A stretch of 64,000 nt of DNA from Thermaerobacter marianensis (GTDB lineage Bacteria; Bacillota; Sulfobacillia; DVGY01), in assembly GCA_020724425.1 (NCBI GenBank), contig DYGY01000008.1, positions 4,151 through 68,150 on the forward strand, written 5' to 3'. Each line of letters starts with the position of its first letter. Position 1 is the stretch's first letter. The position numbers and the translations under genes are program-made. This document shows, piece after piece, positions 6,395 to 40,010 of this stretch. A model generated the notes under the pieces. It worked only from the letters and a program-made list of their open reading frames with translations. It was not told where the DNA came from and searched no databases.

Positions 6395-6406
6395 AGTAAG
6401 ATTAGG

Positions 6407-6441
6407 AAATAAGAGGAGCCGAAATATGGCTCCTCTTATTT
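6407..6441 (+). terminator. Stem-loop terminator after cassette copy 1
   Basis: Perfect 14-bp inverted repeat AAATAAGAGGAGCC/GGCTCCTCTTATTT. Confidence 0.8.
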
Positions 6442-6584
6442 GTCTTTGGTTCAATTGGGTGTCATATTGATAGTGTTTTTCATTAATAGATAATTGTGTA
6501 AGCGCAATTACTTAGCTGGTAGTGTATGATAATTTCGATAGTAGAAAGACTTCTTTTCTAATAGCCTTGTTGGAGGTGTTGACA

Positions 6585-6608
6585 ATGCCACCAGGATCAC
6601 AGGGTTGA
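6585..6608 (+). CDS. Putative leader peptide MPPGSQG (uORF, copy 2)
   Basis: RBS GGAGGTG then ATG CCA CCA GGA TCA CAG GGT TGA; same length and stop as copy 1. Confidence 0.55.
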   Translation: MPPGSQG

Positions 6609-6653
6609 TGTTGTGGCGTTGATGAAAACTACGAAAAGGAGGATTTAAAGCGC

Positions 6654-22762: not shown

Positions 22763-22764
22763 GG

Positions 22765-23778: not shown

Positions 23779-24012
23779 TTAATCTCAGTTCCTACTTCAA
23801 CAGGTGATGTCCTAACTCTGTAATTACTGTAGAAAAGTGTTTTCGACATCCATTTCAGCTAGAACAGGTTAGGATACTTGTATGGCTTAAGTATGATCTT
23901 CCTTAACCTAGAGGCTGTAATTAAGAACTCCGTAGGTAGGCGTCTTAGTAAAAGGCTTGTGTTGGACAAAATTAATGGAGGAGCATCTCTGAACTGTTTA
24001 GGTTCAGTTTTT

Positions 24013-24948
24013 TTAATAATCCATGCGTTTTCTTTGTCTTTGGCAATAGTGTTGTTCATTGAGTGTGGTTATTTCGGTTAAGAACTCTTGTTGTAATGGT
24101 GTTAGGTCGGTATTGTTGGGTCTTAGGACTACCAAGTTATAGCTCAGGGACAGTCCTTTAATAGGTATGGTGTGGAGTAGTCCAGAATCTCTTTCTCTTC
24201 GGACGGCAAGGCAAGAGAGTATTGATGCTGCTCGTCTTCCTTGAACCATGCATTTGATGCCATCGATGCTACCAAACTCCATTAGTATTTGCAGGTTCTT
24301 AAGGGCGAGGTTATGTTTGCTTAGTGCTTTTCTAATGATTGCATGAGTTCCACTGTTTTCTTCAGGTAATATTAGCGGGATGGTTAGTAGTTCTTGTAGA
24401 GTTATGTACTCTTTTTGAAGCCATTCTTTTGTGGGGGGGACTACAAGTGCCAGTTCGTCTTTAATAATCTGTTCGGCGGAATATTGTTTGTCTAGTTTGT
24501 CTTCTTCCACTAAAGCAATATCAATGAGGCCGTCATTGAGTTTTGAAAGTATTGCTTCTGTATTATCAACAACTAGTTTGATAGTTGCATCGGGGTGAGA
24601 GTTCTTGAAGTATAGGAGAGTACAGGGGAGTATATATCCTCCAAGTGTTGTACAGGCTCCAATAGATAGTTTTTCTGAGGATCTACGAATTTCTTCTAGT
24701 TCTTGTTCAAGGTTTTCTTTTAGGTTTAGGATTCTCTGACCGGTGTTATAGAGGCGTTCACCTGAAGGTGTTAGTAGGACCCCTTGTCTTGTTCTTTGCA
24801 GAAGGGTAACACCTAATGCAGATTCTATACCTAGAATACGTTGACTTAGTGAGGGCTGACTCATATGTAGGTTCTGAGCAGCTTTGCTGATGCTCTTTTC
24901 TTGAACCACCATGCAGAAAGCGCGTAAATCATCAAGACTTAGGTTCAT
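24013..24948 (-). CDS. LysR-family regulator (CysL/selenium-metabolism-associated type), copy 1
   Basis: SISKAAQNLHMSQPSLSQRI HTH, GACTTLGGYILP, ENSGT; divergent from the rhodanese-reductase operon. Confidence 0.93.
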   Translation of the reverse strand: MNLSLDDLRAFCMVVQEKSISKAAQNLHMSQPSLSQRILGIESALGVTLLQRTRQGVLLTPSGERLYNTGQRILNLKENLEQELEEIRRSSEKLSIGACTTLGGYILPCTLLYFKNSHPDATIKLVVDNTEAILSKLNDGLIDIALVEEDKLDKQYSAEQIIKDELALVVPPTKEWLQKEYITLQELLTIPLILPEENSGTHAIIRKALSKHNLALKNLQILMEFGSIDGIKCMVQGRRAASILSCLAVRRERDSGLLHTIPIKGLSLSYNLVVLRPNNTDLTPLQQEFLTEITTLNEQHYCQRQRKRMDY

Positions 24949-25022
24949 GGTATCACCCCTATAGCGTAGTAGATGTCTTAATTGTAACAGATACCAGATA
25001 ATTATTCAATTTCCTTATATCT

Positions 25023-25058
25023 ATGAGAAATAGTTATAGCGGGATAGGTAAAGAGTAT
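25023..25058. promoter_or_regulatory. Putative tandem LysR T-N11-A boxes, copy 1
   Basis: ATGAGAAATAGTTAT and ATAGGTAAAGAGTAT; similar pair at 31016-31049. Confidence 0.4.
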
Positions 25059-25216
25059 TATGCTTAAAGGCAATATTTTAGGACTTTGATAGCTATCTAG
25101 AAGTATTAAAGGCAAGGTAGGAAGTGGTTAGACACCCTTGTCAGGCTTTGTAGGACCTATAAGATAAGGTTAACAGGTTGTATCGAAAAATAATGCTAAG
25201 GAGTGAAGTAGTTGTG

Positions 25217-25726
25217 ATGAAGAAACTGCAGGTATTGGTAGTTGTCTTGTTGATGCTGGTTCTAGTTGGCGGTTGTAGTCAATCAGGTCAGAATGAGCCG
25301 GTGACTCCTGTAGCTCAGGCTGTTCCAGTTGATAAGGATGCGATTGTGTATGATGCTGTAGAAGGATTCTTTAAAGCACTTGGTACTAAAGAAGGGGTTT
25401 TAGGTAACAACTTGATTGAGGCCGATCAATTGTATGCGGAACTAAGTCAGGATCCGGGTGCATACTTTGTTGTTGATATTCGTGGGGCAGATGATTTTAA
25501 GGCAGGGCATATAGAGGCCGATTCTATTATAAATCTTCCTTTCCGGGAAGTCGGTGACAATTTGCATCTATTACCCAAGGATAGAACTATTGTGGTTACC
25601 TGTTATACCGGTCAAACTGCTGGGCAGACAATTGCAGCTTTAAGAATTGCTGGTTATGATGCAATTTCTTTGAGAAACGGAATGGTTAATGGCTGGTTAA
25701 AGAACGAACTGCCTGTCACTAACTAG
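25217..25726 (+). CDS. Rhodanese-domain lipoprotein (1a)
   Basis: Lipobox LVGGC, VDIR..DF..GHI, active-site CYTGQTA. Confidence 0.92.
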   Translation: MKKLQVLVVVLLMLVLVGGCSQSGQNEPVTPVAQAVPVDKDAIVYDAVEGFFKALGTKEGVLGNNLIEADQLYAELSQDPGAYFVVDIRGADDFKAGHIEADSIINLPFREVGDNLHLLPKDRTIVVTCYTGQTAGQTIAALRIAGYDAISLRNGMVNGWLKNELPVTN

Positions 25727-25743
25727 ACTGGGGAGGGACTGTT

Positions 25744-26271
25744 GTGGGTAGATTTCTAGTTATCTTCCTCGTAATCATTAGTTTATTCGTGAGTGGGTGT
25801 GCTCAAGAGGAACCTAAGAATGTGGTGCCTGAGTCACAAGTGTTTGCGGGTGAAGTTACGGTTGAAGGTACGGTAAAGAGATATTTTGCTGATTCTCCGG
25901 ATCGGGGAATGAACATGATTGATGCAAAAGTCTTATTAGAGGAGCTAGAGACCAATAGGGATCAGTATTTCCTTGTAGATATTCGCAGTCGGGAGGATTT
26001 TGAAAAGGGTTATATTGACTCAACTGATCTTAACGTAGCTTTTGCACAGGTCGGATATAATCTTGATCTTCTCCCTAGGGATAAGACGATAGTTGTTGGT
26101 TGTTATTCAGGTCAGACGGCAGGCCAGGTGGTGGCAGCACTGCGGATAGCTGGTTATGATGCTTATAGCATTCGCGGTGGTATTACCGGTGGTTGGATTA
26201 ATGCGGGATTTCCTACAGTCGGTGCACCGGTTGTGGATCCAAGTGCTGAGAGTTCCGGTGGTTGTGGTTAA
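25744..26271 (+). CDS. Rhodanese-domain lipoprotein with C-terminal GGCG tail (1b)
   Basis: Lipobox FVSGC, active-site CYSGQTA, C-terminus SAESSGGCG. Confidence 0.92.
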   Translation: MGRFLVIFLVIISLFVSGCAQEEPKNVVPESQVFAGEVTVEGTVKRYFADSPDRGMNMIDAKVLLEELETNRDQYFLVDIRSREDFEKGYIDSTDLNVAFAQVGYNLDLLPRDKTIVVGCYSGQTAGQVVAALRIAGYDAYSIRGGITGGWINAGFPTVGAPVVDPSAESSGGCG

Positions 26272-26286
26272 GGGGGAGGGATACCT

Positions 26287-28470
26287 GTGAAGAAAATGAA
26301 CAGAAGAAGTTTTATTAAGTTGAGTACTGTAGCTATGGCAGCTGCTTCAGGGACAGTCTATACTTCGAAGGCTAAGTGGACTGAGGCTGCTAGCAAGACT
26401 CCTCCATCTATAACAAGGAGTTTTTCTGTATGCAATAGTTGTGGAAACCGTTGCAACATTATTGCTTTTAAGCGACAGGGTCGACTCTGGCGAATTAGTG
26501 GTAATCCCAGGGATAATAAGACGGGTGGAAAGATTTGTGCCAGAGGGCATGCTTATGCGGCAATGGTTTATGATCGGTATCGTTTAGGTACCCCTTTAAA
26601 GAGGATGTCTAATGGTTTTGAACCGATTTCCTGGGAACAAGCTTATGAGGAGATTTCTGATAAGCTTAAGGACATCTTACGTAAGAATGGACCTGAAGCT
26701 ATTTTCTGGTCTGAGTATAGCAAGCCAATAAGTAATTTTTATGGTGCTAGGTTTATGGCAGCTTTAGGTTCGCCTAACTGGACAACGCATGCTTCTACTT
26801 GTTTTGCTGCTAGGAATGTTGGTTTTAATCATACTCTTGGTGGTCTACCTACTGGGGATTATGAGAATACCAAATATGTGGTCTTTATTGGTAGGGCTCC
26901 TGCAGATGGTATCGGTACTTCTATTCTCAAGGGCTTGCCAATGGCTAAACAGAAAGGTGCAAAGGTTGTCGCTGTAGATCCACGACTGAGTTATAGTGCT
27001 AATTCGCTAGCTAATGAGTGGATGGCCATAAGACCTGGAACAGATCTTGCTTTGCTGTTAGCTTGGATCCACATAATGATTAAAGAAAATCTATATGACA
27101 GGGAATTTGTTAGCAAGCATACAGTTGGTTTTTCTGATCTGGAAGCAGCTGTTTCGCAATACACTCCTGCTTGGGCTGCTGGTATAACGGGATTACCGGA
27201 AGAACAGATTAGCAGAGTGGTTAAAGAGATGGCTGCTGCTAAACCTGCTGCTTTTGTTGAACCAGGCTGGCATGCCGCTTATGGTTCTAATTACAGGAAT
27301 AGTACACAGACGGCTAGGGCTATAGCGATTATTAATGCTTTGCTTGGGAATTTGAATCAGCCTGGAGGTCTCTGTTTCTATTCAGGAGCTAATCTTGGGA
27401 GTCTTGATAGTAGCAGGCATCAGGCACCGCCGAATTCTCCGTATAAACGGGTTGATGGTGCAGGAGTAGCTGGTAAGTATCCACTTGCTCTTGGTAGTGG
27501 CTTACATCATCTCTTACCGGGTCTTGCTAAGGAAGGTAAATTCAAGGCAGGTTTCTTCTACTCTATTAATCCTGCTAGGACTGTTCCTGATAGGGAGTAT
27601 GTGGTATCTGGATACAAGAATTTAGAGTTGTCTGTAGTTATTGACTGGCAGTTCTCTGAAACTGCAGAACATGTTGCTGATTATATCCTGCCTGAGAGTC
27701 ATCCGCTGGAGAGAGATGGAATTGTTGAGCCGATATCTGCTAGGATGCCACAGGTAAGTATGCAGAGCAAGGCTATTGAACCTGTTCATCCTGGTGCTAG
27801 GGGTTTAGACAGGATTGTTACGGAATTGGCTCAGGCTATGGGTTTCGGTCGCTATTTTGATTTTAAGTTGGATGATCTTAATAAGGCTATGCTATTTCCG
27901 TTAAAGCTCTTTCCTGTACACTTGCAACAGAGGGGTCCTCAAGTGGCCGGTGGTGCATGGGACTATGGTCAAACCATGTTTAGAACTCCTTCAGGGAAGG
28001 TTGAATTAGCCAGCGGGACTTTTGCGGAACATGGATTTAGCAAGGTGCCTATATGGGAGAGTCCTTTAATTGAACCTTCAAGTGGAGAGTTCCGGATAAT
28101 TCATGGTCACCAGGCGTATCTTACCCATTCACAAACCATTAATAATCCTTATTTGGTTTCCATAGCTAAGGACTATCATGGTGAAGCTATCTGGATAAAT
28201 AGCAAGAAGGCAAGGGAATTAGGAATTGCTGATGGGTCAGACGTTATTGTTAGTGCTAAGGGTTATGAGAACAAGGTACGCTGTAAGGTTACCGAGAGAA
28301 TTCATCCAGAGGCGATTTTTGTGCCTGCAGGCTATGGTAGTTTTGCTAGCAAGCTGGAACGAGGATTTGAGCTCGGTATTAGTATGAATGATTTTGTACC
28401 TCATGCAAGTGAGGATATTTCTGGGCATGCCATGATGCAAGAAGCTGTAGTTAGCATCAGGAAGGCATAG
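26287..28470 (+). CDS. Tat-exported Mo-bisMGD oxidoreductase catalytic subunit, PsrA/PhsA/SrrA family, copy 1
   Basis: NRRSFIK twin-arginine signal, CxxCxxxC...KICARG FS0 motif, HASTCF Cys ligand region, RPGTDLAL, C-terminal molybdopterin-binding domain. Confidence 0.92.
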   Translation: MKKMNRRSFIKLSTVAMAAASGTVYTSKAKWTEAASKTPPSITRSFSVCNSCGNRCNIIAFKRQGRLWRISGNPRDNKTGGKICARGHAYAAMVYDRYRLGTPLKRMSNGFEPISWEQAYEEISDKLKDILRKNGPEAIFWSEYSKPISNFYGARFMAALGSPNWTTHASTCFAARNVGFNHTLGGLPTGDYENTKYVVFIGRAPADGIGTSILKGLPMAKQKGAKVVAVDPRLSYSANSLANEWMAIRPGTDLALLLAWIHIMIKENLYDREFVSKHTVGFSDLEAAVSQYTPAWAAGITGLPEEQISRVVKEMAAAKPAAFVEPGWHAAYGSNYRNSTQTARAIAIINALLGNLNQPGGLCFYSGANLGSLDSSRHQAPPNSPYKRVDGAGVAGKYPLALGSGLHHLLPGLAKEGKFKAGFFYSINPARTVPDREYVVSGYKNLELSVVIDWQFSETAEHVADYILPESHPLERDGIVEPISARMPQVSMQSKAIEPVHPGARGLDRIVTELAQAMGFGRYFDFKLDDLNKAMLFPLKLFPVHLQQRGPQVAGGAWDYGQTMFRTPSGKVELASGTFAEHGFSKVPIWESPLIEPSSGEFRIIHGHQAYLTHSQTINNPYLVSIAKDYHGEAIWINSKKARELGIADGSDVIVSAKGYENKVRCKVTERIHPEAIFVPAGYGSFASKLERGFELGISMNDFVPHASEDISGHAMMQEAVVSIRKA

Positions 28471-28481
28471 GGGGTGTAATT

Positions 28482-29186
28482 GTGGGTCAGTATGCAATGA
28501 TTATTGATAGTAATAGGTGTGTGAGTTGTTTTGCCTGTCGAGTTGCCTGTCAGCTACAGAATGACTTACCTCCAGAATTGAGTCGAATTAAGTTTACCGA
28601 ACAGGAAAAAGGGGTATTCCCCGATACAAGAGTACTGGTGTTACCCACTCAGTGCATGCACTGTGATGATCCGCCCTGTGTTGAGGTGTGTCCAACAGGT
28701 GCCTCGTTTAAGAGGGAGGATGGTTTGGTACTAATTGATTATGAAAAATGTATAGGTTGTCAGTATTGTGTTAGTGCTTGCCCTTATAGTGCAAGATCCT
28801 ATAACCCTAGGACTAAAACGGTAGATAAGTGTACCTTCTGTGCTCCCCGTTTGGCTCAGGGTCAGGGACCTGCCTGTGTTGAAGCATGTATAACAGGGGC
28901 AAGGATATTTGGTAAGGTTGATGAAGAGGGTTCACCGGTACAGGCGCTACTTAAAGATCAAAGGACTAACCAGGTTAAAGGGACCTTGATGTATTATCGT
29001 GTAGGTGAGAAATGGCTAGATGAAATACCTGCTGATGCACATCGTCCTGCCTATGCAAGCCGATTGGTTACCAGGCAACCTGTTGGTACAGCTCTCTTGG
29101 GATTATCTGCTGGAGCAGTAGCTGCCAGTTTTGTTCTCACAAGAGTACGCCGGTCTGGGGAGGGGGATCATGATGAAAAGGATTAA
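28482..29186 (+). CDS. 4x[4Fe-4S] electron-transfer subunit (PsrB/PhsB-like) with C-terminal TM helix, copy 1
   Basis: CVSCFACRVAC, CMHCDDPPCVEVCP, CIGCQYCVSACP, KCTFC...PACVEAC. Confidence 0.93.
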   Translation: MGQYAMIIDSNRCVSCFACRVACQLQNDLPPELSRIKFTEQEKGVFPDTRVLVLPTQCMHCDDPPCVEVCPTGASFKREDGLVLIDYEKCIGCQYCVSACPYSARSYNPRTKTVDKCTFCAPRLAQGQGPACVEACITGARIFGKVDEEGSPVQALLKDQRTNQVKGTLMYYRVGEKWLDEIPADAHRPAYASRLVTRQPVGTALLGLSAGAVAASFVLTRVRRSGEGDHDEKD

Positions 29187-29859
29187 GAGATTCAATGTGG
29201 CGGAAAGAGTAGCTCATTGGAGTCAGGCTTTTGCCTTTGTAGTCCTATTTCTAACTGGTGCAGGTTTAATCTTTCAGTTCTTTGGTGACTTCTTAGGTGT
29301 TGAGGGATTAAGAAGAGCAGGTTTATTGCATCGAGTTATCGGTATTTCTTTCCCGGTGATTGTGCTAGCTGTATTAGTATTGCTCACTCCAAAGACTACT
29401 AGAGAATGGTTAAAATCCTTAGTTTCCTGGAACAAGGATGATATACGGTTCTTAATGTTGTTTCCTAAGGAGTTTTTTGGTGGTCATGTAAAGTTACCTC
29501 CACAGGGGAAGTTTAATGCCGGAGAGAAAATCAACTCATTGTTAGTTATATTTTCGTCGGCAATTATGGTGATTACAGGGTGGATGTTGATTTTTAGGCA
29601 TCTATTTCCTGCCTGGATGGTTGTCTGGATACATCCTGTTCATGCTGGTACCGCGTTACTGTTAGCTGCGGTGATTCTTGCTCATGCTTATCTGGGTCTA
29701 GGGCATCCTAGCTCGCGGGAAGCTATGAAAGGTATGGTTAAGGGTACGGTGAGCGAGACGTTTGCTAGGGAACATCATCTATTATGGTATGAACAGGTTA
29801 AGGATACCGATTACGTTGTTGTTGAGAAAGAGGTTGAGCAAACAGCGTTGGAGAGTTAG
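29170..29859 (+). CDS. Di-haem cytochrome b membrane anchor (PhsC/FdnI-like), copy 1
   Basis: RFNVAERVAHW, LHR, GKFNAGEK, VHA...AHAY, M.KG.VS...A..HH..W. Confidence 0.9.
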   Translation: MMKRIKRFNVAERVAHWSQAFAFVVLFLTGAGLIFQFFGDFLGVEGLRRAGLLHRVIGISFPVIVLAVLVLLTPKTTREWLKSLVSWNKDDIRFLMLFPKEFFGGHVKLPPQGKFNAGEKINSLLVIFSSAIMVITGWMLIFRHLFPAWMVVWIHPVHAGTALLLAAVILAHAYLGLGHPSSREAMKGMVKGTVSETFAREHHLLWYEQVKDTDYVVVEKEVEQTALES

Positions 29860-29902
29860 ACAAGACCCCTGCACTTTGCAGGGGTTCTCTTTTTATGGAG
29901 GT

Positions 29903-30838
29903 CTATTCGTCTTTAATTGAAGTGTTGCAGAATCTTCTTTTTTCTGGATCTTCCATGAGATCTAGAAAACGCGTTTGTAGATCACTTAAAGGTTGGTCTT
30001 GCTGGTAAAGAATGATGAAGTCATAAATAAAGGAGAGGCCTTTGATTGGTACGACGTGTAGCAGGCCGGCGGCCAGTTCTTTACGTATAACAAGTCTTGA
30101 GAGCAAAGCAACCCCTTGGTTAGCTTCAACCATGGCTTTAATAGCATCTACACTATTAAGTTCCATAATGACGTTTAGCTTTTCTGGGTTAACTCCGTGT
30201 TGCGAGAGAATGCTCTCTATCACCTTTCTTGTACCGGAACCCTTTTCTCTGCTTAAGAAAGGGAGGTTAACTAGTTCTGCTAGTTCTAGGTATTCTCTTT
30301 CTTTCCACTCTTGAGTTGGTGGTACTATTAGTACCAGTTCATCTTGTGTTAGATGGCTTGATGTCATTTTTGGTATTTCAATGTTTTCTTCAACTAGTGC
30401 CATATCAATTGTGCCATCAAGGAGTTTTGATATTACCTTCTCGGTATTATCTACCACCATGCGAATGTCTGCGTCTGGATTGAGTTCTTTGAAGTATACC
30501 AGGGTACATGGTAGTGCATATCCACCTAAAGTAGTACTAGCACCTATAATTATTTGATCTTTTGCTGAGGTTCTCAGTCTTTCTAGTTCTTCATCAAGTC
30601 TCTCTCCGAGGTTGAGCATTCTCTGACCAAGATTGTAGAGGATCTCTCCTCCTGCAGTCATTGTGACTCCTTTGTGTGTTCTTTGCAAAAGAGTTATTCC
30701 CATCGATTGTTCTAGTGAACCTATTCTCTGACTTAAAGCAGGCTGGGTCATGTGTAGTTTTTTGGCAGCTTTGCTAATGCTTTTTTCCTCCACTACAATA
30801 CAAAACGCTTCTATATCTTCTAGGTTAATGTTCATCAT
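29903..30838 (-). CDS. LysR-family regulator, copy 2
   Basis: SISKAAKKLHMTQPALSQRI HTH, GASTTLGGYALPC, REKGSGTR. Confidence 0.93.
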   Translation of the reverse strand: MMNINLEDIEAFCIVVEEKSISKAAKKLHMTQPALSQRIGSLEQSMGITLLQRTHKGVTMTAGGEILYNLGQRMLNLGERLDEELERLRTSAKDQIIIGASTTLGGYALPCTLVYFKELNPDADIRMVVDNTEKVISKLLDGTIDMALVEENIEIPKMTSSHLTQDELVLIVPPTQEWKEREYLELAELVNLPFLSREKGSGTRKVIESILSQHGVNPEKLNVIMELNSVDAIKAMVEANQGVALLSRLVIRKELAAGLLHVVPIKGLSFIYDFIILYQQDQPLSDLQTRFLDLMEDPEKRRFCNTSIKDE

Positions 30839-31015
30839 ATCACCATCCTTTTGGGTCCTTTATAAGACCCATGTTCTATTATATCAATACTACTTTAGAA
30901 CTAAAAAGGGGTATGAAAGTTCTAGCAATCACAAGCCCTGAAAGGCCTAATATTACTAGTTTTCGGCAATTTAGCTTAGTTTAGGAATTAGTATTTTATC
31001 AGGTCATCGCCCGAT

Positions 31016-31049
31016 ATGCAATCTGCTTATAGGTATAATATTGCGTTAT
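31016..31049. promoter_or_regulatory. Putative tandem LysR T-N11-A boxes, copy 2
   Basis: ATGCAATCTGCTTAT and ATAATATTGCGTTAT in the divergent intergenic region. Confidence 0.4.
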
Positions 31050-31206
31050 GAAGAGTTTTGTCAAGTGGCCTGAAATGCTTATGGTATAAGGGATTACGAT
31101 ATCTTCGAAGGTAGTATGAAAGCTGTCTTGTCAGCTTGCCAAATAGGAGTACTCGAGTATAATTGAATTAAGGAAAGTGAACACATTCACAAAGGGGGCG
31201 TAATTA

Positions 31207-31713
31207 ATGAAAAAGAGAGCATTGTGGATTCTTACTTTTGTACTAATTCTTTCTGTAGCTTTGATTGCTGGTGGTTGTGGTCAGGAACAACCGGTTCAGA
31301 ACACAGAAACACCAGCACCACAAGTAGAAATTGATGAAGATGCAATTGTTTATGAAAGAATCATTAGTTATTTTGATGGGTTAAAGCAGAACAACAATAT
31401 GATTGCTCCAAGTGTGGTTTATGAGGCATTGCAGAGTGATCCAGGGGCATATTTCATCCTTGATATTAGAGCCGCTGATGATTATGCTAAGGGTCATATC
31501 GAAGCAGCTAGTATTCTTAATATAGCTTGGGCAGAGGTTGGTAGCAATATGCACCTATTACCAAGGGATCGGACAATTGTTGTTACCTGCTATAGTGGGC
31601 AGTCTGCAGGGCAGACAGTAGCTGCTTTGAGGTTAGCTGGTTATGATGCAATATCTTTGCAGGGTGGCATGAACAATGGTTGGTTGAAAGCTGAACTACC
31701 GATAGTTGATTAG
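31207..31713 (+). CDS. Rhodanese-domain lipoprotein (2a)
   Basis: Lipobox IAGGC, LDIR..DY..GHI, CYSGQSA; paralog of 25217-25726. Confidence 0.92.
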   Translation: MKKRALWILTFVLILSVALIAGGCGQEQPVQNTETPAPQVEIDEDAIVYERIISYFDGLKQNNNMIAPSVVYEALQSDPGAYFILDIRAADDYAKGHIEAASILNIAWAEVGSNMHLLPRDRTIVVTCYSGQSAGQTVAALRLAGYDAISLQGGMNNGWLKAELPIVD

Positions 31714-31740
31714 GAATTAAATGACCAGGGAGGGAAATTC

Positions 31741-32343
31741 ATGAATAACATTCGCGTATATTCGTTGCGGTTTGCTACCCTGGTCCTTTTGCTATCTTTA
31801 CTTGCCCTCACTTGGGGTTGTGGGTTAGAGGGGTCGGCTGGTCCGGCCCCTGCAAACCCCCAAGGAACTGAAGGTCTGGTAATCAAGGTAAGTGAAGTGG
31901 ACCAGAGTACGGCTGATGAGATTGTTTACAAACATGTAACAGAATATTTTAGTAGTTTGCAACGTGAGGGAGAACCAGCTTTTAATCTTGTTGATCCAGG
32001 TATTGCTTATGAGAATCTCAATAAGAGTCCCGAACAGTATTTTTTGGTTGATTTGAGAAGCAGAAGTGATTTTGAAGTTGCATTCGCCGCTGAGACTGAT
32101 TTAAATATAGCTGCTGCTGCACTTGCAGAGAATATGGATCTTCTACCTAAGGATAAGACCATTTATGTTGGCTGTTATACAGGGCAAACTGCAGGTCAGG
32201 TTGTAGCTGCATTAAGGGTTGCTGGTTATGATGCTTATAGTATTAGAGGTGGCATTACTAATGGTTGGATAGCTGCAGGCTTACCTGTTGTTGGTGCTCC
32301 TGCTAACACATCTGATAGTGCAGCTGGAGGTTGTGGTGGTTAA
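31741..32343 (+). CDS. Rhodanese-domain lipoprotein with C-terminal GGCGG tail (2b)
   Basis: Lipobox-like LTWGC, CYTGQTA, C-terminus DSAAGGCGG; paralog of 25744-26271. Confidence 0.92.
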   Translation: MNNIRVYSLRFATLVLLLSLLALTWGCGLEGSAGPAPANPQGTEGLVIKVSEVDQSTADEIVYKHVTEYFSSLQREGEPAFNLVDPGIAYENLNKSPEQYFLVDLRSRSDFEVAFAAETDLNIAAAALAENMDLLPKDKTIYVGCYTGQTAGQVVAALRVAGYDAYSIRGGITNGWIAAGLPVVGAPANTSDSAAGGCGG

Positions 32344-32374
32344 AGCGTTCTCTAGTGGTAAGGAGGGAAGATAG

Positions 32375-34585
32375 GTGAAACTGAATCGTAGAACATTCCT
32401 GAAATTGTCGGCTGCAACAGCGTCTATGGCAGCTTTAGGCGCTAGCAAATATAGATCGGTTGATAACTGGGCTAGTGCTAATGAAAGACCTTCTAATATC
32501 ACCACAGCATATTCTGTGTGTAATAGTTGTGGTAACCGGTGTGGAATTATGGCGTACTTGAGGAATGGACGGTTGTGGAGAATTACTGGTAATCCTGATG
32601 ACAATAAGTCTGGGGGTAAGATTTGTACTAGAGGGCATGGGTATGCTCAGATGGTTTATGATAAGTATCGTTTAAGCCAACCGTTGAAACGTACAAGTGA
32701 TGGTTCGTTTGTGGAGATCCCCTGGGAGCAGGCTTATCAGGAGATTGGTGATAAGTTAATGGGTGTTGTCCGTAAGTATGGTCCTCAATCTGTGTTCTGG
32801 AGTGAATATAGCAAGCCAATCTCTAATTTCTATGGTGCCAGATTGATGGCTGCTTTGGGATCCCCCAACTGGACTACTCACTCATCTACCTGTTTTGTGG
32901 GTAGGAATGTTGGTTTTGATTATACTTTAGGTGGTTTACCGAGTGGTGATTATGAAAATACCAAGTATGTTGTATTTGTTGGTCGTTCACCTGCTGATGG
33001 CATGGGGTTAAATATTCTTAAAGGTTTAGGTGTGGCTAAGAAGAAGGGTGCCAAAGTTGTTTCAGTAGATCCAAGGCTCAGTTACAGTGCCGGTGTCTTA
33101 GCTGATGAATGGGTGGCAGTTAAGCCTGGTACAGATTTGGCATTGCTATTGGCCTGGATGAATGTATTAATTGCTGAAAATCTTTATGATAAAGGATTTG
33201 TAGAAAACTATACAGTTGGTTTTGCTGAACTAAAGGAAATGGTTAAGCAATATACCCCTGAGTGGGCTGAGACCATCACAGGGGTTAAGGCAGAACAGAT
33301 TAGGAGAATTGGTCGGGAGTTAGGAGCAAATAGACCAGCGGCATTCTTGGAACCAGGCTGGCATGCAGCATATGGTTCTAACTATGCCAATAGTACTCAG
33401 ACAGCAAGAGCAACAGCCATTGTAAATGGTCTGCTTGGTAACATCAACAAGCCAGGTGGTCTATGTTTTTATAACAGGGTGAGTTTTGGGGGTTTGAATC
33501 CAGAGCTTTATCCAACTCCTCCAGCATCACCTTATGAAAGAGTTGATGGTGCTGGTGTTAAGGGTAAGTATCCCTTAACTTTATCAACTGGTTTGCATCA
33601 CCTGTTACCTGGTCTGGCTAAGGAAGGTAAACTGAAGGCTGGTATCTTCTATTCGGTTAACCCGGGAAGAACAGTACCTGATCGGAACTATGTGATTGAG
33701 GGATATAAGAACCTAGAATTGACTATCGTAATTGACTGGCAGATGTCTGAGACTGCTGAACAGTTTGCTGATTATGTATTACCAGAGAGCCATCCAATGG
33801 AGAGAGATGGTATAGTTGAAGCTATTGCTAGCAGTAGGCCTCAGGTTACGATGCAGGCTAAGGTAATTGACCCTGTTCATTCAGGTGGAAGGGGTCTAGA
33901 TCGCATTGTTAGTGAGTTGGCTACAGCAATGGGTCTAGAAAGATTCTTCAACTTTACTCTAGAGGATTTAAATAAGGCCATGCTATTCCCCTTAGGACTA
34001 TTCCCGGTTCATCTTAAGAGCAGGGGTATTGTGGATGGTGATGCAGGGCAGTGGCATTATGAGTTTCCTGTTGATGGTAGTGGTAAGCCAAGTTTAAGAA
34101 CTAAGTCGGGTAAGGTAGAGTTTTTTAGCTCTAGTTTTGCTGAGCATGGTCATAATCCTTTACCAGCATGGCAGGCACCTAAGGTGATGCCATCAGGGGA
34201 TAAGTTAAGGATGATTCATGGTCATCAAGCCTATCATACTCATGCCCAAACAATGAATAATCCATATTTGATGAGTATTACCAAGGACTATGAGGGTGAT
34301 TCCATATGGTTAAATACAGAGACTGCCAAAAGGTTGGGTATTAGTGATGGCGATACAGTACAGGTTAGTGGTAATGGTTGGGAGGCAAAATCTAAGGTTA
34401 AGGTAACTCAGAGGATCCATCCAGAGGCGTTGTTTGTACCTGGTGGCTATGGTGGTTTTGCCAAGAGTCTAGTTAGAGGTTATGGTATTGGGGTTAATAT
34501 AAATGACTTCCTAAAGCATGATACGGAACCAATTTCGGGGCATGCGATGATGGAAGAGGTTTTGGTTAGTGTAAAGAGGGCATAA
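32375..34585 (+). CDS. Tat-exported Mo-bisMGD oxidoreductase catalytic subunit, PsrA/PhsA/SrrA family, copy 2
   Basis: NRRTFLK, CNSCGNRC...KICTRG, HSSTCF, KPGTDLAL. Confidence 0.92.
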   Translation: MKLNRRTFLKLSAATASMAALGASKYRSVDNWASANERPSNITTAYSVCNSCGNRCGIMAYLRNGRLWRITGNPDDNKSGGKICTRGHGYAQMVYDKYRLSQPLKRTSDGSFVEIPWEQAYQEIGDKLMGVVRKYGPQSVFWSEYSKPISNFYGARLMAALGSPNWTTHSSTCFVGRNVGFDYTLGGLPSGDYENTKYVVFVGRSPADGMGLNILKGLGVAKKKGAKVVSVDPRLSYSAGVLADEWVAVKPGTDLALLLAWMNVLIAENLYDKGFVENYTVGFAELKEMVKQYTPEWAETITGVKAEQIRRIGRELGANRPAAFLEPGWHAAYGSNYANSTQTARATAIVNGLLGNINKPGGLCFYNRVSFGGLNPELYPTPPASPYERVDGAGVKGKYPLTLSTGLHHLLPGLAKEGKLKAGIFYSVNPGRTVPDRNYVIEGYKNLELTIVIDWQMSETAEQFADYVLPESHPMERDGIVEAIASSRPQVTMQAKVIDPVHSGGRGLDRIVSELATAMGLERFFNFTLEDLNKAMLFPLGLFPVHLKSRGIVDGDAGQWHYEFPVDGSGKPSLRTKSGKVEFFSSSFAEHGHNPLPAWQAPKVMPSGDKLRMIHGHQAYHTHAQTMNNPYLMSITKDYEGDSIWLNTETAKRLGISDGDTVQVSGNGWEAKSKVKVTQRIHPEALFVPGGYGGFAKSLVRGYGIGVNINDFLKHDTEPISGHAMMEEVLVSVKRA

Positions 34586-34610
34586 ATAGACCCGGAAAGG
34601 AGTGCGGCCC

Positions 34611-35306
34611 ATGTCTAAGTATGCAATGTTAATTGATGTTAATGAATGTATAGGCTGCTATGCTTGTCGGGTAGCCTGTCAGACTACAAATGACCTTCCT
34701 TCAGATATTAGTCGTATTAAGTTCATGGAAAAGGAGAAAGGGACATTTCCAGAGACAGAGATAGTTGTTTTGCCTACTCAATGTATGCATTGTGATGAAC
34801 CTGCTTGTGTTGATGTTTGCCCTACTGGAGCTTCCTTTAAGAATGAAGATGGTTTGGTTCTAATTGATTATGATAAGTGTATTGGTTGTAAGTATTGCAT
34901 CACTGCTTGTCCTTATGATGCAAGAACTTTCAATACCTCTACAGGAAAAGTTGATAAGTGTAATTTCTGTGCACCTAGAGTACAGAGAGGTATGCAACCT
35001 GCCTGTGTGGAGGCTTGTGTCAATGATGCCAGGTTCTTTGGTGAGGTAGATGACTCCAATTCACCTATTAGCAAGTTGATTGCTGAAGCAGATACTGCTA
35101 AAGTGGGAGGAACCTCGTTCTATTACAAGCTTCCTGAAGGCTGGGATGAGAGTTTGCCAGAGGATGCTATAAAACCTGCTTATGTTAAGAATCTAACAGA
35201 GAGAGTGCATCCTGCAGGTAAGGCTTTGTTAGGATTATCGGCAGGAGCTGTAGCAGCAAGCTATGTGATGACAAGAGTCAATGGCGGACATGAGGATGAA
35301 GAATAG
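34611..35306 (+). CDS. 4x[4Fe-4S] electron-transfer subunit, copy 2
   Basis: CIGCYACRVAC, CMHCDEPACVDVCP, CIGCKYCITACP, KCNFC; C-terminal hydrophobic helix. Confidence 0.93.
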   Translation: MSKYAMLIDVNECIGCYACRVACQTTNDLPSDISRIKFMEKEKGTFPETEIVVLPTQCMHCDEPACVDVCPTGASFKNEDGLVLIDYDKCIGCKYCITACPYDARTFNTSTGKVDKCNFCAPRVQRGMQPACVEACVNDARFFGEVDDSNSPISKLIAEADTAKVGGTSFYYKLPEGWDESLPEDAIKPAYVKNLTERVHPAGKALLGLSAGAVAASYVMTRVNGGHEDEE

Positions 35307-35323
35307 TTGAGGTGGTGACTACT

Positions 35324-36028
35324 ATGTCTAAAAAGGGCAATGTAAGGATAAAGCGTTTTAATTTGGCCGAGAGGGTAGCACACTGGAGTCAAGCCTTTGC
35401 ATTTGTTGTTCTCTTTCTCACTGGCTCTGCTCTAATCTTTCGTGGTTATGGTGCTTTGCTAGGAGCAGAGGGACTGAGAATTGCCGGGATGATCCATAGA
35501 ATTATTGGTGTTTCTTTTCCAATAATTATTCTGGCTATTCTGCTCCTACTGACTCCAAAGACAACCAAGGAGTGGCTACGTTCGGTATTTAGTTGGAACA
35601 TGAGTGATATTAAGTTTCTGGCTTTATTCCCCAAAGAGTTCTTTGGTCTTAAGGTGAAATTGCCTGCTCAGGGGAAGTTTAATGCTGGTGAGAAGATAAA
35701 CTCCTTGATTACCATATTTGGATCCATGTTGATGGTTATTACCGGCTGGATGTTGATTCTACAGGATAGGTTCTCACCTTCAGTTATTGCTTGGGTTCAT
35801 CTTTTGCATGCTTCAGGAGCCTTACTGATGGGAGCTGTTATTATCGCTCATGCTTATCTGGCTTTAGGACATCCTGGTTCCCGGGAAGCTATAAATGGTA
35901 TGATCTCTGGTACTGTTAGTGAAAAGTTTGCAAAAGAACACCATGAACTCTGGTATAATGAAGTTAAGGATACTAATAGGGTAGTTGTTGGAGAAGAGGT
36001 TCAAGATTTGAAAGAACGAGAAGCATAG
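35324..36028 (+). CDS. Di-haem cytochrome b membrane anchor (PhsC/FdnI-like), copy 2
   Basis: RFNLAERVAHW, IHR, GKFNAGEK, LHA...AHAY. Confidence 0.9.
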   Translation: MSKKGNVRIKRFNLAERVAHWSQAFAFVVLFLTGSALIFRGYGALLGAEGLRIAGMIHRIIGVSFPIIILAILLLLTPKTTKEWLRSVFSWNMSDIKFLALFPKEFFGLKVKLPAQGKFNAGEKINSLITIFGSMLMVITGWMLILQDRFSPSVIAWVHLLHASGALLMGAVIIAHAYLALGHPGSREAINGMISGTVSEKFAKEHHELWYNEVKDTNRVVVGEEVQDLKEREA

Positions 36029-36147
36029 CTTCTTAGAGATGGTTGGGAGACCTGTAATAGGTCTCCCACAAAAATATATGATATGTAAGAGGAATTGTGA
36101 TATGATAAAGAGAGCAGAAATTATTGTCAATCGTGGAGGTGTCCCAG

Positions 36148-36375
36148 TTGTTTGGTGGAAAAATAGGTCTATGGGAATTAGTTCTTATTTTAGCAATTGC
36201 ATTAGTGATTTTTGGGCCACAGAAGTTACCGGAGATGGGACGTTCATTGGGTAAGGGTATTAAGGAGTTTCGTAAAGCAACAAAGGAATTAACTGAGGAA
36301 ATTGATATCGATGAAGAACCAAGCAAGGAGAAGAAAGTAAAGGAAGAAAAAACGGAAGAAGATAAGAAGGAGTAA
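36148..36375 (+). CDS. tatA: Twin-arginine translocase TatA
   Basis: GLWELVLIL...[23 protein letters not shown]; TTG start after GGAGGTG. Confidence 0.95.
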
Positions 36376-36402
36376 CCTTCATATTAGCCTGGGGGCAGGG
36401 TT

Positions 36403-37143
36403 ATGGATGAAAGGCAGATTAGAGAAGATGAGGGGATGACCCTTGTTGAACATCTTGAAGAATTGCGAAAACGAGTAGTTCGGATTATTGTGGTTAGTAT
36501 TCTGGCTATAGGTGTAAGTTTTGTTTTTGCTTCTGATTTGCTGGCTTATATAGTTGAACCGGTAGACTCCCTGGTTATTTTAACACCGGGTGAGGGTTTT
36601 TTTGCTACTTTGCGGCTGGCAATAATGATGGGTTTGGCTTTAGCATCACCCTTTATTATTTATCAGCTAGTTGCTTTTATATTGCCTGCTTTGACTAAGC
36701 AGGAAAGGAAGTATTTATATGTACTGCTGCCTTTTGGATACATACTCTTCTGGGCAGGAGTACTTTTTGCGTATTTTGTTATTGTTCCCTATGTGTATCG
36801 GTTCTTTATTGGCTTTACTTATGAGGGGTTAATGGAACCATATATTTCTGTAAGTAGTTATCTAGGGTTTGTTCTTGGGGTAATTATTCCTTTTGGTATT
36901 ATTTTTGAGTTACCGATTCTTGTTTCTTTGTTAACCATTATTGGTCTTGTCACTCCAGATATTTTAAAGAAATATAGGAAGTATGCTATTCTGCTGGTTT
37001 TTGTGGTGGCTGCCTTTTTTACCCCACCTGATCCTATTTCTCAGGGGTTAATGGCAGGTCCTTTGATTCTTCTATATGAGTTTAGTATTTCGATATCAAA
37101 GATAGTGTACAAGCGTAGGCTAAGGAGAGAGGATTTTGAGTAG
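36403..37143 (+). CDS. tatC: Twin-arginine translocase TatC
   Basis: MTLVEHLEELRKR, FILPAL...E, FELP, TPPDPISQ, LYE. Confidence 0.96.
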   Translation: MDERQIREDEGMTLVEHLEELRKRVVRIIVVSILAIGVSFVFASDLLAYIVEPVDSLVILTPGEGFFATLRLAIMMGLALASPFIIYQLVAFILPALTKQERKYLYVLLPFGYILFWAGVLFAYFVIVPYVYRFFIGFTYEGLMEPYISVSSYLGFVLGVIIPFGIIFELPILVSLLTIIGLVTPDILKKYRKYAILLVFVVAAFFTPPDPISQGLMAGPLILLYEFSISISKIVYKRRLRREDFE

Positions 37144-37654
37144 AGTGCCTGTCTTTTCTATTGTGGGTAGGAGTAATAGTGGGAAGACTACCCTGCTTGA
37201 GAGAGTAATTAGGGGTTTAAGGGAACTAGATATACGTGTAGCCACTATTAAACATGATACTCATGGTTTTGATATTGATCATAAGGGTAAAGATACGTAT
37301 CGTCACAGGGAGGCAGGTGCTGAGGTGGTGTTGATCTCCTCAGTAGAAAGATTGGCTTTTATGCAGGAATTAAGGGAAGAGTTGGAGTTAGTGGAGTTAG
37401 TAGCTCTGGTGGAAGAGAGGGCTAAGGTAGATCTTATCCTTACTGAAGGCTATAAGACGGGTAGTGTTCCCAGGTTAGAGGTATTTAATCAGGGTAGATA
37501 CACTGAGCTTGTTTCTGATTTGGAAGCAACTCATCTTACCGCCATAGTTACTGATAGGCCAGAGAGTATTGAGATTGATAAACCTGTCTATCATTGGGAT
37601 GATGTTGATGGTGTGGTTAGACATATTTTAGAGGTGACAGGATTAGGAGGATAG
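37136..37654 (+). CDS. mobB: Molybdopterin-guanine dinucleotide biosynthesis protein MobB
   Basis: GRSNSGKTTL, IKHDTHGFDID..GKDT, EGYK. Confidence 0.94.
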   Translation: MSRVPVFSIVGRSNSGKTTLLERVIRGLRELDIRVATIKHDTHGFDIDHKGKDTYRHREAGAEVVLISSVERLAFMQELREELELVELVALVEERAKVDLILTEGYKTGSVPRLEVFNQGRYTELVSDLEATHLTAIVTDRPESIEIDKPVYHWDDVDGVVRHILEVTGLGG

Positions 37655-37659
37655 GAGTA

Positions 37660-38280
37660 ATGCTTGCCGTTGTCTTAGCCGGAGGGCAGAGCAGACGTAT
37701 GGGTCAGGATAAGGCTCTTCTTACCCTGGCAGACAAGACATTTATTGAGACTATTTATGATGAGCTCCGGGGATATTTCTCTGAGATAGTTATCTCAGCT
37801 AACAATCCGGAGCCTTATTTTCATCTGGGATTAAAGATATTAAGAGATGAATATGAGGGTCTTGGTCCTTTAGCAGGTATTCATAGTGGTCTTTCCTATG
37901 CACAAAAAAGGGGCAAGAAGCATATTTTTGTGGTGAGTTGTGATATGCCGATGATCTCTGGAAGACTAGCTTACAGGATGGTAGAGCTTTTGGAAGAGGA
38001 CTATCAGGCGGTTGTACCTAAGGCTGGTGATAGGATCTTCCCTACCTTCAGTGCCTATAGTGTAAGGGCATTTGCTGAGATTGATCAGGCATTAAGAGAG
38101 GAAAGATTACGTTTACAGGCTATCTTAAGGGAATTAAATACATACTGGCTGTTGGAGGATGAAATTGCTTTATATGGAGAGCCACTAAAGATACTAAGGA
38201 ATGTCAATAATCTTAAAGAGTATCTGGATCTCAGGGATATCTATGGAGAGGAAGAGGATAGTGAGAGAAATAAGGGCTGA
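37660..38280 (+). CDS. mobA: Molybdenum cofactor guanylyltransferase MobA
   Basis: LAGGQSRRMGQDKA, GPLAGI, SCDMP, NVN. Confidence 0.94.
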   Translation: MLAVVLAGGQSRRMGQDKALLTLADKTFIETIYDELRGYFSEIVISANNPEPYFHLGLKILRDEYEGLGPLAGIHSGLSYAQKRGKKHIFVVSCDMPMISGRLAYRMVELLEEDYQAVVPKAGDRIFPTFSAYSVRAFAEIDQALREERLRLQAILRELNTYWLLEDEIALYGEPLKILRNVNNLKEYLDLRDIYGEEEDSERNKG

Positions 38281-38842
38281 AATGTATGGAATAATGGCAG
38301 AATGCTTTAGAGAACCTTCAGAGAGTTTCATTGAAGATGTCAATGAGGGAATACTGGAAACAGAGGTTTCAGAATTGCTTCATAGTTTGAATATAACTGT
38401 GGAGGGATTAGGACAAGTTGATTTAGAGGCTGAGTATTATAATCTTTTTGTTAACCCTCAGGGACAAAGATTGGTTCCTGTGGAGTCTATTTATCGTCCT
38501 TGGACCATGTCAGATGAGGAGAGTATTCTTGGGAAGACTAAAGGATATCTGATGAGTGATTGGGCGATGCATCTCATGAATGTTTATGAAGATATGGGGA
38601 TTGAGCTACCAGCTGAATATCAGTCAAAACCTGATCATTTGACCCTTGAGTTAGAGTTTATGGCTCTTTTGCTACAGTTAGGGGAAGAGGAGGTTTCTAA
38701 GCAATTCTTTAGGGACCATCTTGATTGGTTAGGGGACTTGTTCACTGATGTTAAAGAGAGGTATTCACTAGGACCCTTTTATACATATGTTTTCGGAGTT
38801 CTAGAGGCATTCTGGAGACATGAAAAGGACCTCATTGGTTAG
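38243..38842 (+). CDS. TorD/DmsD-family molybdoenzyme chaperone
   Basis: EY..LF, PVESIY, PDHLTLELEFM, F..HLDW. Confidence 0.9.
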   Translation: MERKRIVREIRAEMYGIMAECFREPSESFIEDVNEGILETEVSELLHSLNITVEGLGQVDLEAEYYNLFVNPQGQRLVPVESIYRPWTMSDEESILGKTKGYLMSDWAMHLMNVYEDMGIELPAEYQSKPDHLTLELEFMALLLQLGEEEVSKQFFRDHLDWLGDLFTDVKERYSLGPFYTYVFGVLEAFWRHEKDLIG

Positions 38843-38853
38843 GAGGAACAGCT

Positions 38854-39993: not shown

Positions 39994-40010
39994 TGAGGAT
40001 GGTGTAAGAT

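Follow-up and report, generated by a model that had tools for sequence, protein, structure and literature searches.

Organization of the locus

The window analyzed here is a 64,000-nucleotide stretch of Thermaerobacter marianensis DNA (contig DYGY01000008.1 of assembly GCA_020724425.1). The locus of interest, at positions 24013 to 38842, encodes two copies of a predicted outward-facing, molybdenum (Mo)-dependent sulfur reductase, each with a LysR regulator and two rhodanese lipoproteins, followed by one set of maturation genes. A previous reading of the DNA letters (the sequence-only reading) had described two intact units of LysR, two rhodaneses, Mo subunit, iron-sulfur (FeS) subunit, and cytochrome b, with tatA, tatC, mobB, mobA, and a TorD-type chaperone after unit 2. 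An open reading frame (ORF) check and profile scans confirmed this layout: all 17 ORFs are open and in the order reported, the Pfam and NCBIfam matches agree, and the maturation genes are present as single copies at 36124 to 38842. In each unit the second rhodanese bears a cysteine tail, which was overlooked in the earlier reading and is the most informative feature. The features are listed below.

24013-24948, minus strand: LysR regulator 1; NF040786-like, 217 bits, below the cut-off of 250
25004-25037, plus strand: tandem LysR-box-like site pair of unit 1; AT-N9-TTAT-N4-AT-N9-TTAT
25178-25726, plus strand: rhodanese lipoprotein A1; lipobox Cys, loop CYTGQT, no tail
25744-26271, plus strand: rhodanese lipoprotein B1; loop Cys120, low-confidence linker, C-terminal GGCG, tail Cys174 (codon 26263-26265)
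26287-28470, plus strand: Mo-bisPGD catalytic subunit 1; Tat signal, 4Fe-4S motif CNSCGNRC, Cys172 at the Mo-ligand position
28482-29186, plus strand: four-cluster FeS subunit 1; 16 Cys, hydrophobic helix at the C terminus
29131-29859, plus strand: cytochrome b 1, FdnI/PhsC type; 4 helices, four conserved His
29864-29886, plus strand: terminator-like hairpin in the gap between unit 1 and LysR 2; weak alone
29903-30838, minus strand: LysR regulator 2; NF040786, 259 bits, above the cut-off of 250
31016-31049, plus strand: tandem LysR-box-like site pair of unit 2; same pattern as in unit 1
31207-31713, plus strand: rhodanese lipoprotein A2; loop CYSGQS, no tail
31741-32343, plus strand: rhodanese lipoprotein B2; loop Cys145, C-terminal GGCGG, tail Cys198 (codon 32332-32334)
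32375-34585, plus strand: Mo-bisPGD catalytic subunit 2; Tat signal, Cys173 at the Mo-ligand position
34602-35306, plus strand: four-cluster FeS subunit 2; 16 Cys, C-terminal helix that aligns with that of copy 1, below the hydropathy threshold
35312-36028, plus strand: cytochrome b 2, FdnI/PhsC type; TIGR01583 above cut-off, Escherichia coli FdnI 1KQF_C at an E value of 5e-15
36124-37143, plus strand: tatA and tatC; sole copies found in the genome
37136-38280, plus strand: mobB and mobA; sole copies found in the genome
38201-38842, plus strand: TorD/DmsD-type chaperone; PF02613

As judged from ribosome-binding sites, the start of rhodanese A1 is probably nearer 25217 and that of cytochrome b 1 nearer 29170.

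An old tandem duplication with both copies retained

The two units are collinear, with a spacing of ∼6.1 kb and DNA that is ∼69% identical over 2959 bp. Protein identity between the units is 66% for the Mo subunit, 65% for cytochrome b, 61% for the FeS subunit and for rhodanese A, 53% for rhodanese B, and 49% for LysR. Fourfold-degenerate sites are just 30 to 49% identical, and the duplication is therefore old. A recent duplication was ruled out by silent sites near saturation and the lack of a long exact repeat. An assembly artefact was ruled out by spanning contigs from three other studies (soil, bioreactor, and sludge): in three of four DNA runs (X3, X5, and X7), a single contig without joints covers 22000 to 41500 (19.5 kb), and in the fourth run (X4) the stretch is in pieces. 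The spanning contigs carry one single-base deletion, which is intergenic, with no indel listed in coding regions. The two best-matching runs (subsurface, possible sources) were excluded from this check.

In an 82-row tree the two Mo subunits are sisters (FastTree support of 1.0), which upholds the whole-unit tandem duplication first proposed from the sequence. They are 65 to 66% identical to each other and at most 48% identical to the other 118 matches (best 120 of 530). The phylogenetic check suggested for the catalytic subunits was thereby carried through in part: both copies are sisters, lie outside the clade of srr-order loci, and are far from PhsA, in a tree that has Salmonella PhsA as its sole characterized reference and is without SrrA, Wolinella PsrA, and TtrA. 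The deep branches are unreliable because two outgroups did not group together.

A scan of named genomes gave only three distant loci (25 to 29% identity), and named references are therefore scarce. In a sample of the phylum, with a maximum of two candidates scored per genome, 40 of the 400 other genomes contained a match with an E value of 1e-80 or better; two of the sampled genomes had two matches each, which lay on separate contigs and fell into different clades. None of 47 related neighborhoods (up to 20 kb, several ending at contig ends) showed an in-clade second copy in tandem. A single cassette of LysR, YeeE, subunits A and B, and an FdnI-type C occurs in six of these loci (L068, L070-L073, and L075), and the order in L021 is LysR, YeeE, rhodanese, A, B, C. 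A tandem arrangement of whole units is rare, yet the cassette from which it is made is widespread. These comparisons point to an old, lineage-specific duplication of which both copies were retained; such a duplication is evolutionarily unremarkable in itself, although this family rarely shows one. At L062:5218-13411 (G347), a clade member adjoins a second, distant Mo enzyme of 848 residues that is accompanied by an FeS subunit, TorD, and tatC of its own.

The catalytic subunits and their likely chemistry

Both Mo subunits carry an RR-x-F twin-arginine (Tat) motif, the motif CNSCGNRC, and a cysteine (Cys172 or Cys173) aligned with that of Thermus PsrA. Their top NCBIfam match is PhsA, at 430 and 455 bits, below the cut-off of 694; the other scores are 233/249 bits for Fdh, 124/155 bits for ArrA, and 54/54 bits for TtrA. 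The top Protein Data Bank (PDB) match is Thermus PsrA (E value of 9e-92, 312 bits), with ArrA at 121 bits. By family scores, PDB matches, and the tree, the Mo subunits are nearer PsrA/PhsA than ArrA, TtrA, DmsA, or Fdh, and the matches to the PhsA family and Thermus PsrA agree with the previous assignment to the PsrA/PhsA/SrrA lineage. The sections of a 2026 paper used here (PMC12949373) describe PsrA, PhsA, and SrrA as not separable by phylogeny, in accord with the earlier statement that the substrate cannot be read from sequence. In the same sections, Psr has an eight-helix anchor without a cofactor, Phs has five helices and two hemes, and Srr is set apart by srrE, srrD, and srrF. This naming rule, by anchor and accessory genes, fails at the present locus because a Phs-type anchor coexists with Srr-type accessories, which makes it a mosaic under the published rules.

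In five segments that line the active site, chosen with the Thermus alignment and background knowledge as guides, the copies are identical at 53 of 64 positions (83%, versus 66% overall), and these segments differ widely between clades, at most positions. The same chemistry in both copies is therefore favored. A search of the genome for dissimilatory or other siroheme sulfite reductases found none, which favors polysulfide or one-step thiosulfate cleavage over full thiosulfate respiration.

A cysteine tail on rhodanese B and its predicted docking

Rhodanese B1 ends in GGCG and B2 in GGCGG, 15 and 31 bases, respectively, ahead of the Mo gene; among genome ORFs of at least 70 residues, just these two have such ends. 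The rhodaneses of the window are single-domain proteins of 168 to 200 residues. AlphaFold gave B1 a confident rhodanese core and a low-confidence tail (predicted local distance difference test [pLDDT] values of 54 to 59 over the last 15 residues), and all listed fold matches of B1 are rhodaneses. Selenocysteine (Sec) in the window tails was ruled out: both have TGT and then TAA, and no Sec machinery was found.

A complex model of Mo subunit 1 (residues 40 to 727) with B1 (residues 36 to 175) scored 0.78 (runs of 0.79, 0.70, and 0.78), and the best of three controls scored 0.00. The runs share at least 66% of contacts, with a partner pLDDT of at least 85. The score mark was passed by 116 of 157 solved pairs and 2 of 215 mismatched pairs, counts that are roughly applicable with the alignments used. 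In the modeled interface, B1 residues 83, 93 to 97, and 108 to 111 and the linker (159 to 165) face Mo subunit residues 371 to 380 and 529 to 549. Seven of the eight B1 domain interface residues are kept in B2 (R83, D95, L96, N97, D108, L109, and P111, not S93), and R83, D95, and D108 differ in both A proteins. On the Mo side, an FPVH motif is found in the two copies and a strain variant only and in no other alignment row. The model supports a predicted binding of B1 to the Mo subunit; entry of the arm into the active site lies outside the model. A PDB sequence search named no rhodanese chain within a molybdoenzyme complex among the matches listed.

Tailed rhodaneses in related loci

A rhodanese lies directly upstream of the Mo gene in 11 of the 47 related loci, and 10 of the 11 are tailed: 4 have a Cys within two residues of the end, and 6 have a TGA tail, which reads Gly-Gly or Ala-Gly, TGA, one small residue, and stop, with a short hairpin downstream. 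The 17 other rhodaneses in these loci all lack a tail Cys or TGA. In G122, a partial rhodanese ending in GCG is followed by A, B, C, and TorD. L064, L083, L085, L087, and L065 have kept the tail but lost the loop Cys. Interchange of Cys and Sec at a terminal position suggests a reactive thiol. All six TGA-tail genomes have selA, as do all 17 chosen relatives; selA also occurs in 270 of 401 genomes of the phylum sample, so little follows from its presence in the relatives.

When 120 homologs of a two-domain tailed protein were sorted by a simple rule, 9 had Cys tails, 9 ended in Gly-Gly or Ala-Gly, and 102 were other. Among the last, a protein search found a group ending in AAT beside relatives ending in ATCSG, and a recoded TGA was forecast before the DNA was fetched: 10 of 12 metagenome loci had TGA-Gly-stop plus a hairpin, and 2 had Cys. 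The Mo gene directly follows the tailed rhodanese in 9 of the 12, and three short contigs showed none. As background, a stop occurs two codons on in 8 of 60 nonrhodanese TGA-ending genes. RefSeq homologs WP_429158010.1, WP_248618509.1, and WP_248664012.1 end at Gly, with no U. A profile search of 1.84 billion representatives gave mostly multidomain rhodaneses, and just 7 of 141 new matches had a Cys in the last three residues; the tail is therefore not general to this rhodanese type.

Two-domain rhodanese lipoproteins with TGA tails, directly ahead of the Mo gene, lie at L063:6929-8080, L065:10423-11511, L066:3272-4375, L067:6925-8016, L069:10471-11580, and L074:7124-8209 and also in L104-L112 and L115; with their SECIS-like hairpins, these are predicted to be unannotated selenoproteins of srr-order operons. 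An SrrF-like multirhodanese at L074:11707-12924 reads YCGGFQ-TGA-GYSH where homologs have YCGGFFCGKSH, and its in-frame TGA is likely a second Sec site. YeeE-like ORFs in L020, L081, L082, L086, L088, L089, L091, L092, and L094 have a stop just ahead of PGT, in the sulfur-handling loop; these broken ORFs upstream of the Mo gene possibly encode a Sec-containing YeeE. Multidomain rhodaneses P0171, P0231, P0234, P0242, P0244, P0250, and P0254 and the P0175-P0203 group have SGEG- or TVG/AIG-type ends, which may reflect truncation at a recoded TGA. At L021:9119-11425 (G020), the one locus with a tail-less upstream rhodanese, the coding sequence of the Mo subunit is broken up into two ORFs (412 and 335 residues).

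Catalogued rhodanese selenoproteins (forms 1 to 5) carry Sec in UxxS, UxxG, CxU, or UxxxxU motifs in the part of a 2026 selenoprotein inventory consulted (PMC13188914), and Table 1 of that inventory has no rhodanese with a penultimate TGA tail. The NCBIfam searches gave no family for the tailed rhodanese. No tailed rhodanese partner of these enzymes was found in a literature search, outside which lay most subscription papers, BSepDB, and deep-Sep data.

These comparisons bear on whether the window encodes a duplicated respiratory selenite reductase (Srr), a reading that we consider very unlikely. Two rhodaneses and a TorD chaperone are accessories that define srr in the sections cited of PMC12949373, and LysR 2 scores above the cut-off of a "selenium metabolism-associated" family. 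The same LysR type also flanks YeeE-type cassettes, and the srr-order loci (srrE-A-B-C-D-F) form a separate clade with different active-site segments. The B subunit of 234 residues, the 238-residue cytochrome b anchor, and the single-domain rhodaneses depart from the Srr sizes given in part of another report (17-kDa B, 43-kDa anchor, and 38- and 45-kDa rhodaneses; PMC12481199). No selA, selD, or tRNA-Sec was found above cut-off in this genome (92% complete). With no such machinery found and with both copies outside the srr-order clade, the role in selenium respiration that had been suggested for the locus was not upheld.

The tail could instead serve enzyme upkeep, through resulfuration or protection of the Mo center or by resolving the loop persulfide, with the enzyme using free polysulfide or thiosulfate. 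Most relatives function without a tailed rhodanese, the tip of the tail is unplaced in the model, and the loop and tail cysteines are both present in the window proteins and could react with each other. However, some loci retain the tail but have lost the loop Cys, so that a purely intramolecular role is excluded for them, and a membrane-anchored stoichiometric partner encoded 15 to 31 bases ahead of the Mo gene suits a standing role. Upkeep therefore appears to us an improbable function, if a less remote one than selenite reduction.

Two regulators and the question of different acceptors

LysR regulators 1 and 2 are the sole two LysR proteins above cut-off in the genome. Each LysR intergenic region has a matching pair of LysR-box-like sites; the pattern was set after inspection and gave three matches in the genome, versus 0 to 2 in each of five shuffles. 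A relaxed pattern matched in 2 of 47 related loci, in neither case within the LysR intergenic region. Since the related LysR regions lack it, support for the box comes from the two window copies only. One LysR gene per unit, together with the matching site pairs, fits the earlier claim that each unit has its own regulator. The RNA runs consist of assembled contigs, which permit no ranking of expression: run X19 gave five pieces (four in unit 2, one in tat, and none in unit 1), and runs X10 and X14 included both LysR genes and parts of both units.

That the copies are tuned to different acceptors, as proposed in the sequence-only reading, is not what the active-site segments indicate. In its full form, this explanation holds that the copies are isoenzymes (for example, for polysulfide versus thiosulfate or tetrathionate), each under its own LysR. 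Substitutions beside the Mo ligand (AA versus VG after the Cys and L versus H in the C-terminal segment) are in its favor, and a few changes in that position could tune the chemistry. Both copies have also stayed intact through near-saturated silent sites and in strains of three other studies, the LysR pair is the most diverged of the unit gene pairs, and the RNA run with contigs in unit 2 and tat only adds weak support. Yet the segments are mostly shared by copies when clades differ at most positions, and retention with separate regulators fits divided expression or dosage equally well. We therefore regard isoenzymes for different acceptors as unlikely; divided expression would be a simpler reading of two LysR proteins than divided substrate.

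Maturation genes and genome context

A tblastn search found tatA, tatC, mobA, and mobB as the sole copies in the genome. The core molybdenum cofactor (Moco) genes, two narGHJI operons, and an Fdh are on other contigs (all named by inspection). As the sole copies found, mobA and mobB must also serve the two Nar operons and the Fdh. The description of the locus as self-contained is accordingly not supported, and neither is the term "island": tetranucleotide divergence falls at the 82nd and 65th percentiles of 625 genome windows, GC content at third codon positions (GC3) is like that of the neighbors, and no mobility genes were found among 25 ORFs scanned.

The narGHJI operons are complete (G000 C39:61135-66313 and C35:135779-142100), each beside a two-component system, and form a second duplicated respiratory enzyme in the 2.1-Mb genome. 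An HdrCBA-MvhDGA hydrogenase cluster with maturation genes is at L116 (G000 C12:423-12911); the genome has this one NiFe hydrogenase, of the cytoplasmic Mvh/Hdr type, and a complex-I-like NuoD. Three proteins of the genome match the Tat motif, two of them being the Mo subunits described here, and TatA and TatC would thus have few substrates.

Adjacent to the locus, a cysteine desulfurase and ThiI are encoded at window positions 38854 to 41192, following the chaperone at gaps of 11 and 17 bases; we take these to be a housekeeping pair, possibly transcribed by read-through from the maturation genes. The gap that separates cytochrome b 2 from tatA contains, at 36043 to 36106, a GC-rich hairpin together with a match to an extended −10-like promoter, and the maturation genes may have their own promoter there. 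Promoter and terminator counts were not above those of shuffles (13 terminator-like sites in the region versus 11.8 in shuffled sequence). A second two-gene tandem repeat is found at window positions 5012 to 8033 (242/217 and 244/214 residues); its first pair had no NCBIfam match at an E value of 1e-15.

The membrane anchor and the direction of catalysis

The anchor is a PF01292/TIGR01583 cytochrome b with four helices and 238 to 242 residues. Four His columns are invariant in 13 of 13 aligned anchors, Salmonella PhsC included, and two hemes are predicted from these four His in common with PhsC. The segment GKFNAGEK aligns with GKYNAGQK of E. coli FdnI, presumably a quinone-site element. Each FeS subunit has 234 residues, with 16 Cys, and ends in a helix that is clear in copy 1. 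We assign the anchor to the FdnI/PhsC type of cytochrome b and not to the NrfD type of PsrC and SrrC.

This architecture bears on the strongest rival to sulfur reduction, in which catalysis runs in the opposite direction: external sulfide would be oxidized to carrier-bound sulfane, and electrons would pass through the FdnI-type hemes to menaquinone in a redox loop with the two Nar enzymes. The FdnH/FdnI layout is copied here, with a C-terminal helix on the FeS subunit and a four-helix cytochrome b. The genome encodes two narGHJI operons, no exported hydrogenase, and a NiFe hydrogenase that is cytoplasmic, and of the three Tat-motif matches, none but the two Mo subunits is a redox protein. Psr is reversible with sulfide. 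Conversely, the named tailed-rhodanese homologs come from genera that we take to be sulfur or thiosulfate reducers, and an SQR type III-like protein (L117:9364-10545; 409 bits, below cut-off) could fill the sulfide-oxidizing role. Characterized members of the family are also listed as reductases in the part of PMC7331816 consulted. We view nitrate-coupled sulfide oxidation as possible but doubtful.

A working model for sulfur delivery

We find the case evenly poised for our preferred reading, namely, that the locus encodes duplicated sulfane-sulfur reductases with the same chemistry in both copies, in which the tail of rhodanese B delivers sulfur as a persulfide. We infer the direction and substrate from the genes and the model. 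Both copies would form sulfide by reducing sulfane sulfur, either that of polysulfide or that of thiosulfate. Rhodanese A would load sulfane sulfur from polysulfide or thiosulfate and hand it to the tail of B. Rhodanese B is predicted to dock on the Mo subunit by residues kept in the B copies and absent in A, with its linker on the enzyme surface, and the tail may then swing into the Mo funnel as the SoxY arm does. Electrons would follow a route from menaquinol through the hemes and the FeS wire to the Mo center. The two LysR proteins would divide the copies by expression, not substrate, and tat, mob, and chaperone genes would stay single because they act in trans.

A broader proposal, which we hold more tentatively, is that a branch of this family acts on sulfur held by the SoxY-like arm of a docked rhodanese and not on free polysulfide. 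The arm would carry Cys here and an unannotated penultimate Sec in many relatives, including those of srr order. The present locus would then be the smallest selenium-free carrier-enzyme pair, present twice, and might run backwards as a nitrate-coupled sulfide-oxidizing loop.

Several observations weigh against the delivery of sulfur by a docked arm. Tail residues 166 to 175 of B1, which include the cysteine, are unplaced in the model; the modeled pair is that of unit 1 only, with controls that did not include rhodanese A; and the Mo side of the interface is identical between the copies at 11 of 20 positions, no more than the 66% overall. The upstream rhodanese of L021 is tail-less, and most relatives are without a tailed rhodanese (many have YeeE), so an arm is not required in every case. 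Loci with a tail are interrelated, and two metagenome pairs are near-identical, so the counts overstate independence; Sec in the tails of relatives is itself predicted from DNA. As to direction and substrate, the FdnH/FdnI-like architecture and the two Nar operons fit oxidation equally well, and Psr homologs reduce thiosulfate and tetrathionate too, according to the sections cited of PMC12949373.

The locus makes substrate delivery testable in small, selenium-free proteins, through the tail Cys and Mo subunit surfaces 371 to 380 and 529 to 549. The operon offers a built-in control in its tail-less rhodanese A, along with a second copy of everything. The analysis also predicts an overlooked selenoprotein form in sulfur-respiring Bacillota.

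Comparison with known systems

Salmonella enterica PhsABC belongs to the same catalytic family (35% identity to PhsA) and has the same A-B-C order, and PhsC is a diheme cytochrome b with the same four His (26 to 28% identity). It differs in that PhsC has five helices and PhsB lacks a C-terminal helix, whereas the anchor here has four helices and the B subunit has such a helix. The window copies also score below the PhsA cut-off and are far from PhsA in the tree, and PhsABC is not duplicated and has no rhodanese, LysR, or chaperone annotated beside it.

Thermus thermophilus PsrABC (2VPW-2VPZ) gives the best PDB match of the Mo subunit, with the Cys ligand aligned. Thermus PsrA H145 and R332, presumed functional residues, align with E and W here. 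PsrC is an eight-helix, cofactor-free NrfD protein in the description used above (PMC12949373), unlike the cytochrome b of the window. Wolinella succinogenes Sud (1QXN) is likewise an external single-domain rhodanese and matches the rhodanese profile at an E value of 4e-8. We take Sud to be a sulfur donor to Psr; the rhodaneses here differ from it in being lipoproteins encoded within the operon, one with a Cys tail. The srrEABCDF operon of Bacillus selenitireducens MLS10 shares two rhodaneses, a TorD-type chaperone, and a rhodanese directly before the Mo gene and differs in subunit sizes, anchor type, and accessory order, and srr-order loci fall in another clade.

The GGCGG arm of SoxY is described in the portions of two reports consulted (PMC6067878 and PMC11237559), and its cysteine binds the sulfur substrate (PMC6067878). 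Both tails have a glycine-flanked Cys at the extreme C terminus on a flexible linker, outside the membrane and beside a molybdenum sulfur enzyme. Here, in contrast, the fold is that of a rhodanese, which is lipid anchored and probably reductive, with Cys or, in relatives, a predicted Sec. There was no match to the SoxY family at an E value of 0.1 and no soxZ-like ORF in the locus; the likeness is one of a five-residue motif and is probably convergent.

Further counterparts are cassettes of LysR, YeeE, Mo, FeS, and cytochrome b genes in other Bacillota (L068, L070-L073, L075, L021, and L022) and the rhodanese-A-B-C-TorD arrangement of G122 (L080 and L120), which have a divergent LysR of the same type, a C-terminal extension on the B subunit, and an FdnI-type anchor (55 to 58% identity). 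They differ in being single copy, in that YeeE mostly replaces the two rhodaneses, and in their Mo subunits (∼40 to 42%), which belong to other clades. Rhodaneses recur beside Psr/Phs-type enzymes and are coexpressed with them; the parts of the sources consulted treat their function as an open question (PMC6378623; bioRxiv 10.64898/2026.08.20.746091). The kind of cassette and the rhodanese neighbors are thus already known; what stands out here is the predicted docked carrier arm.

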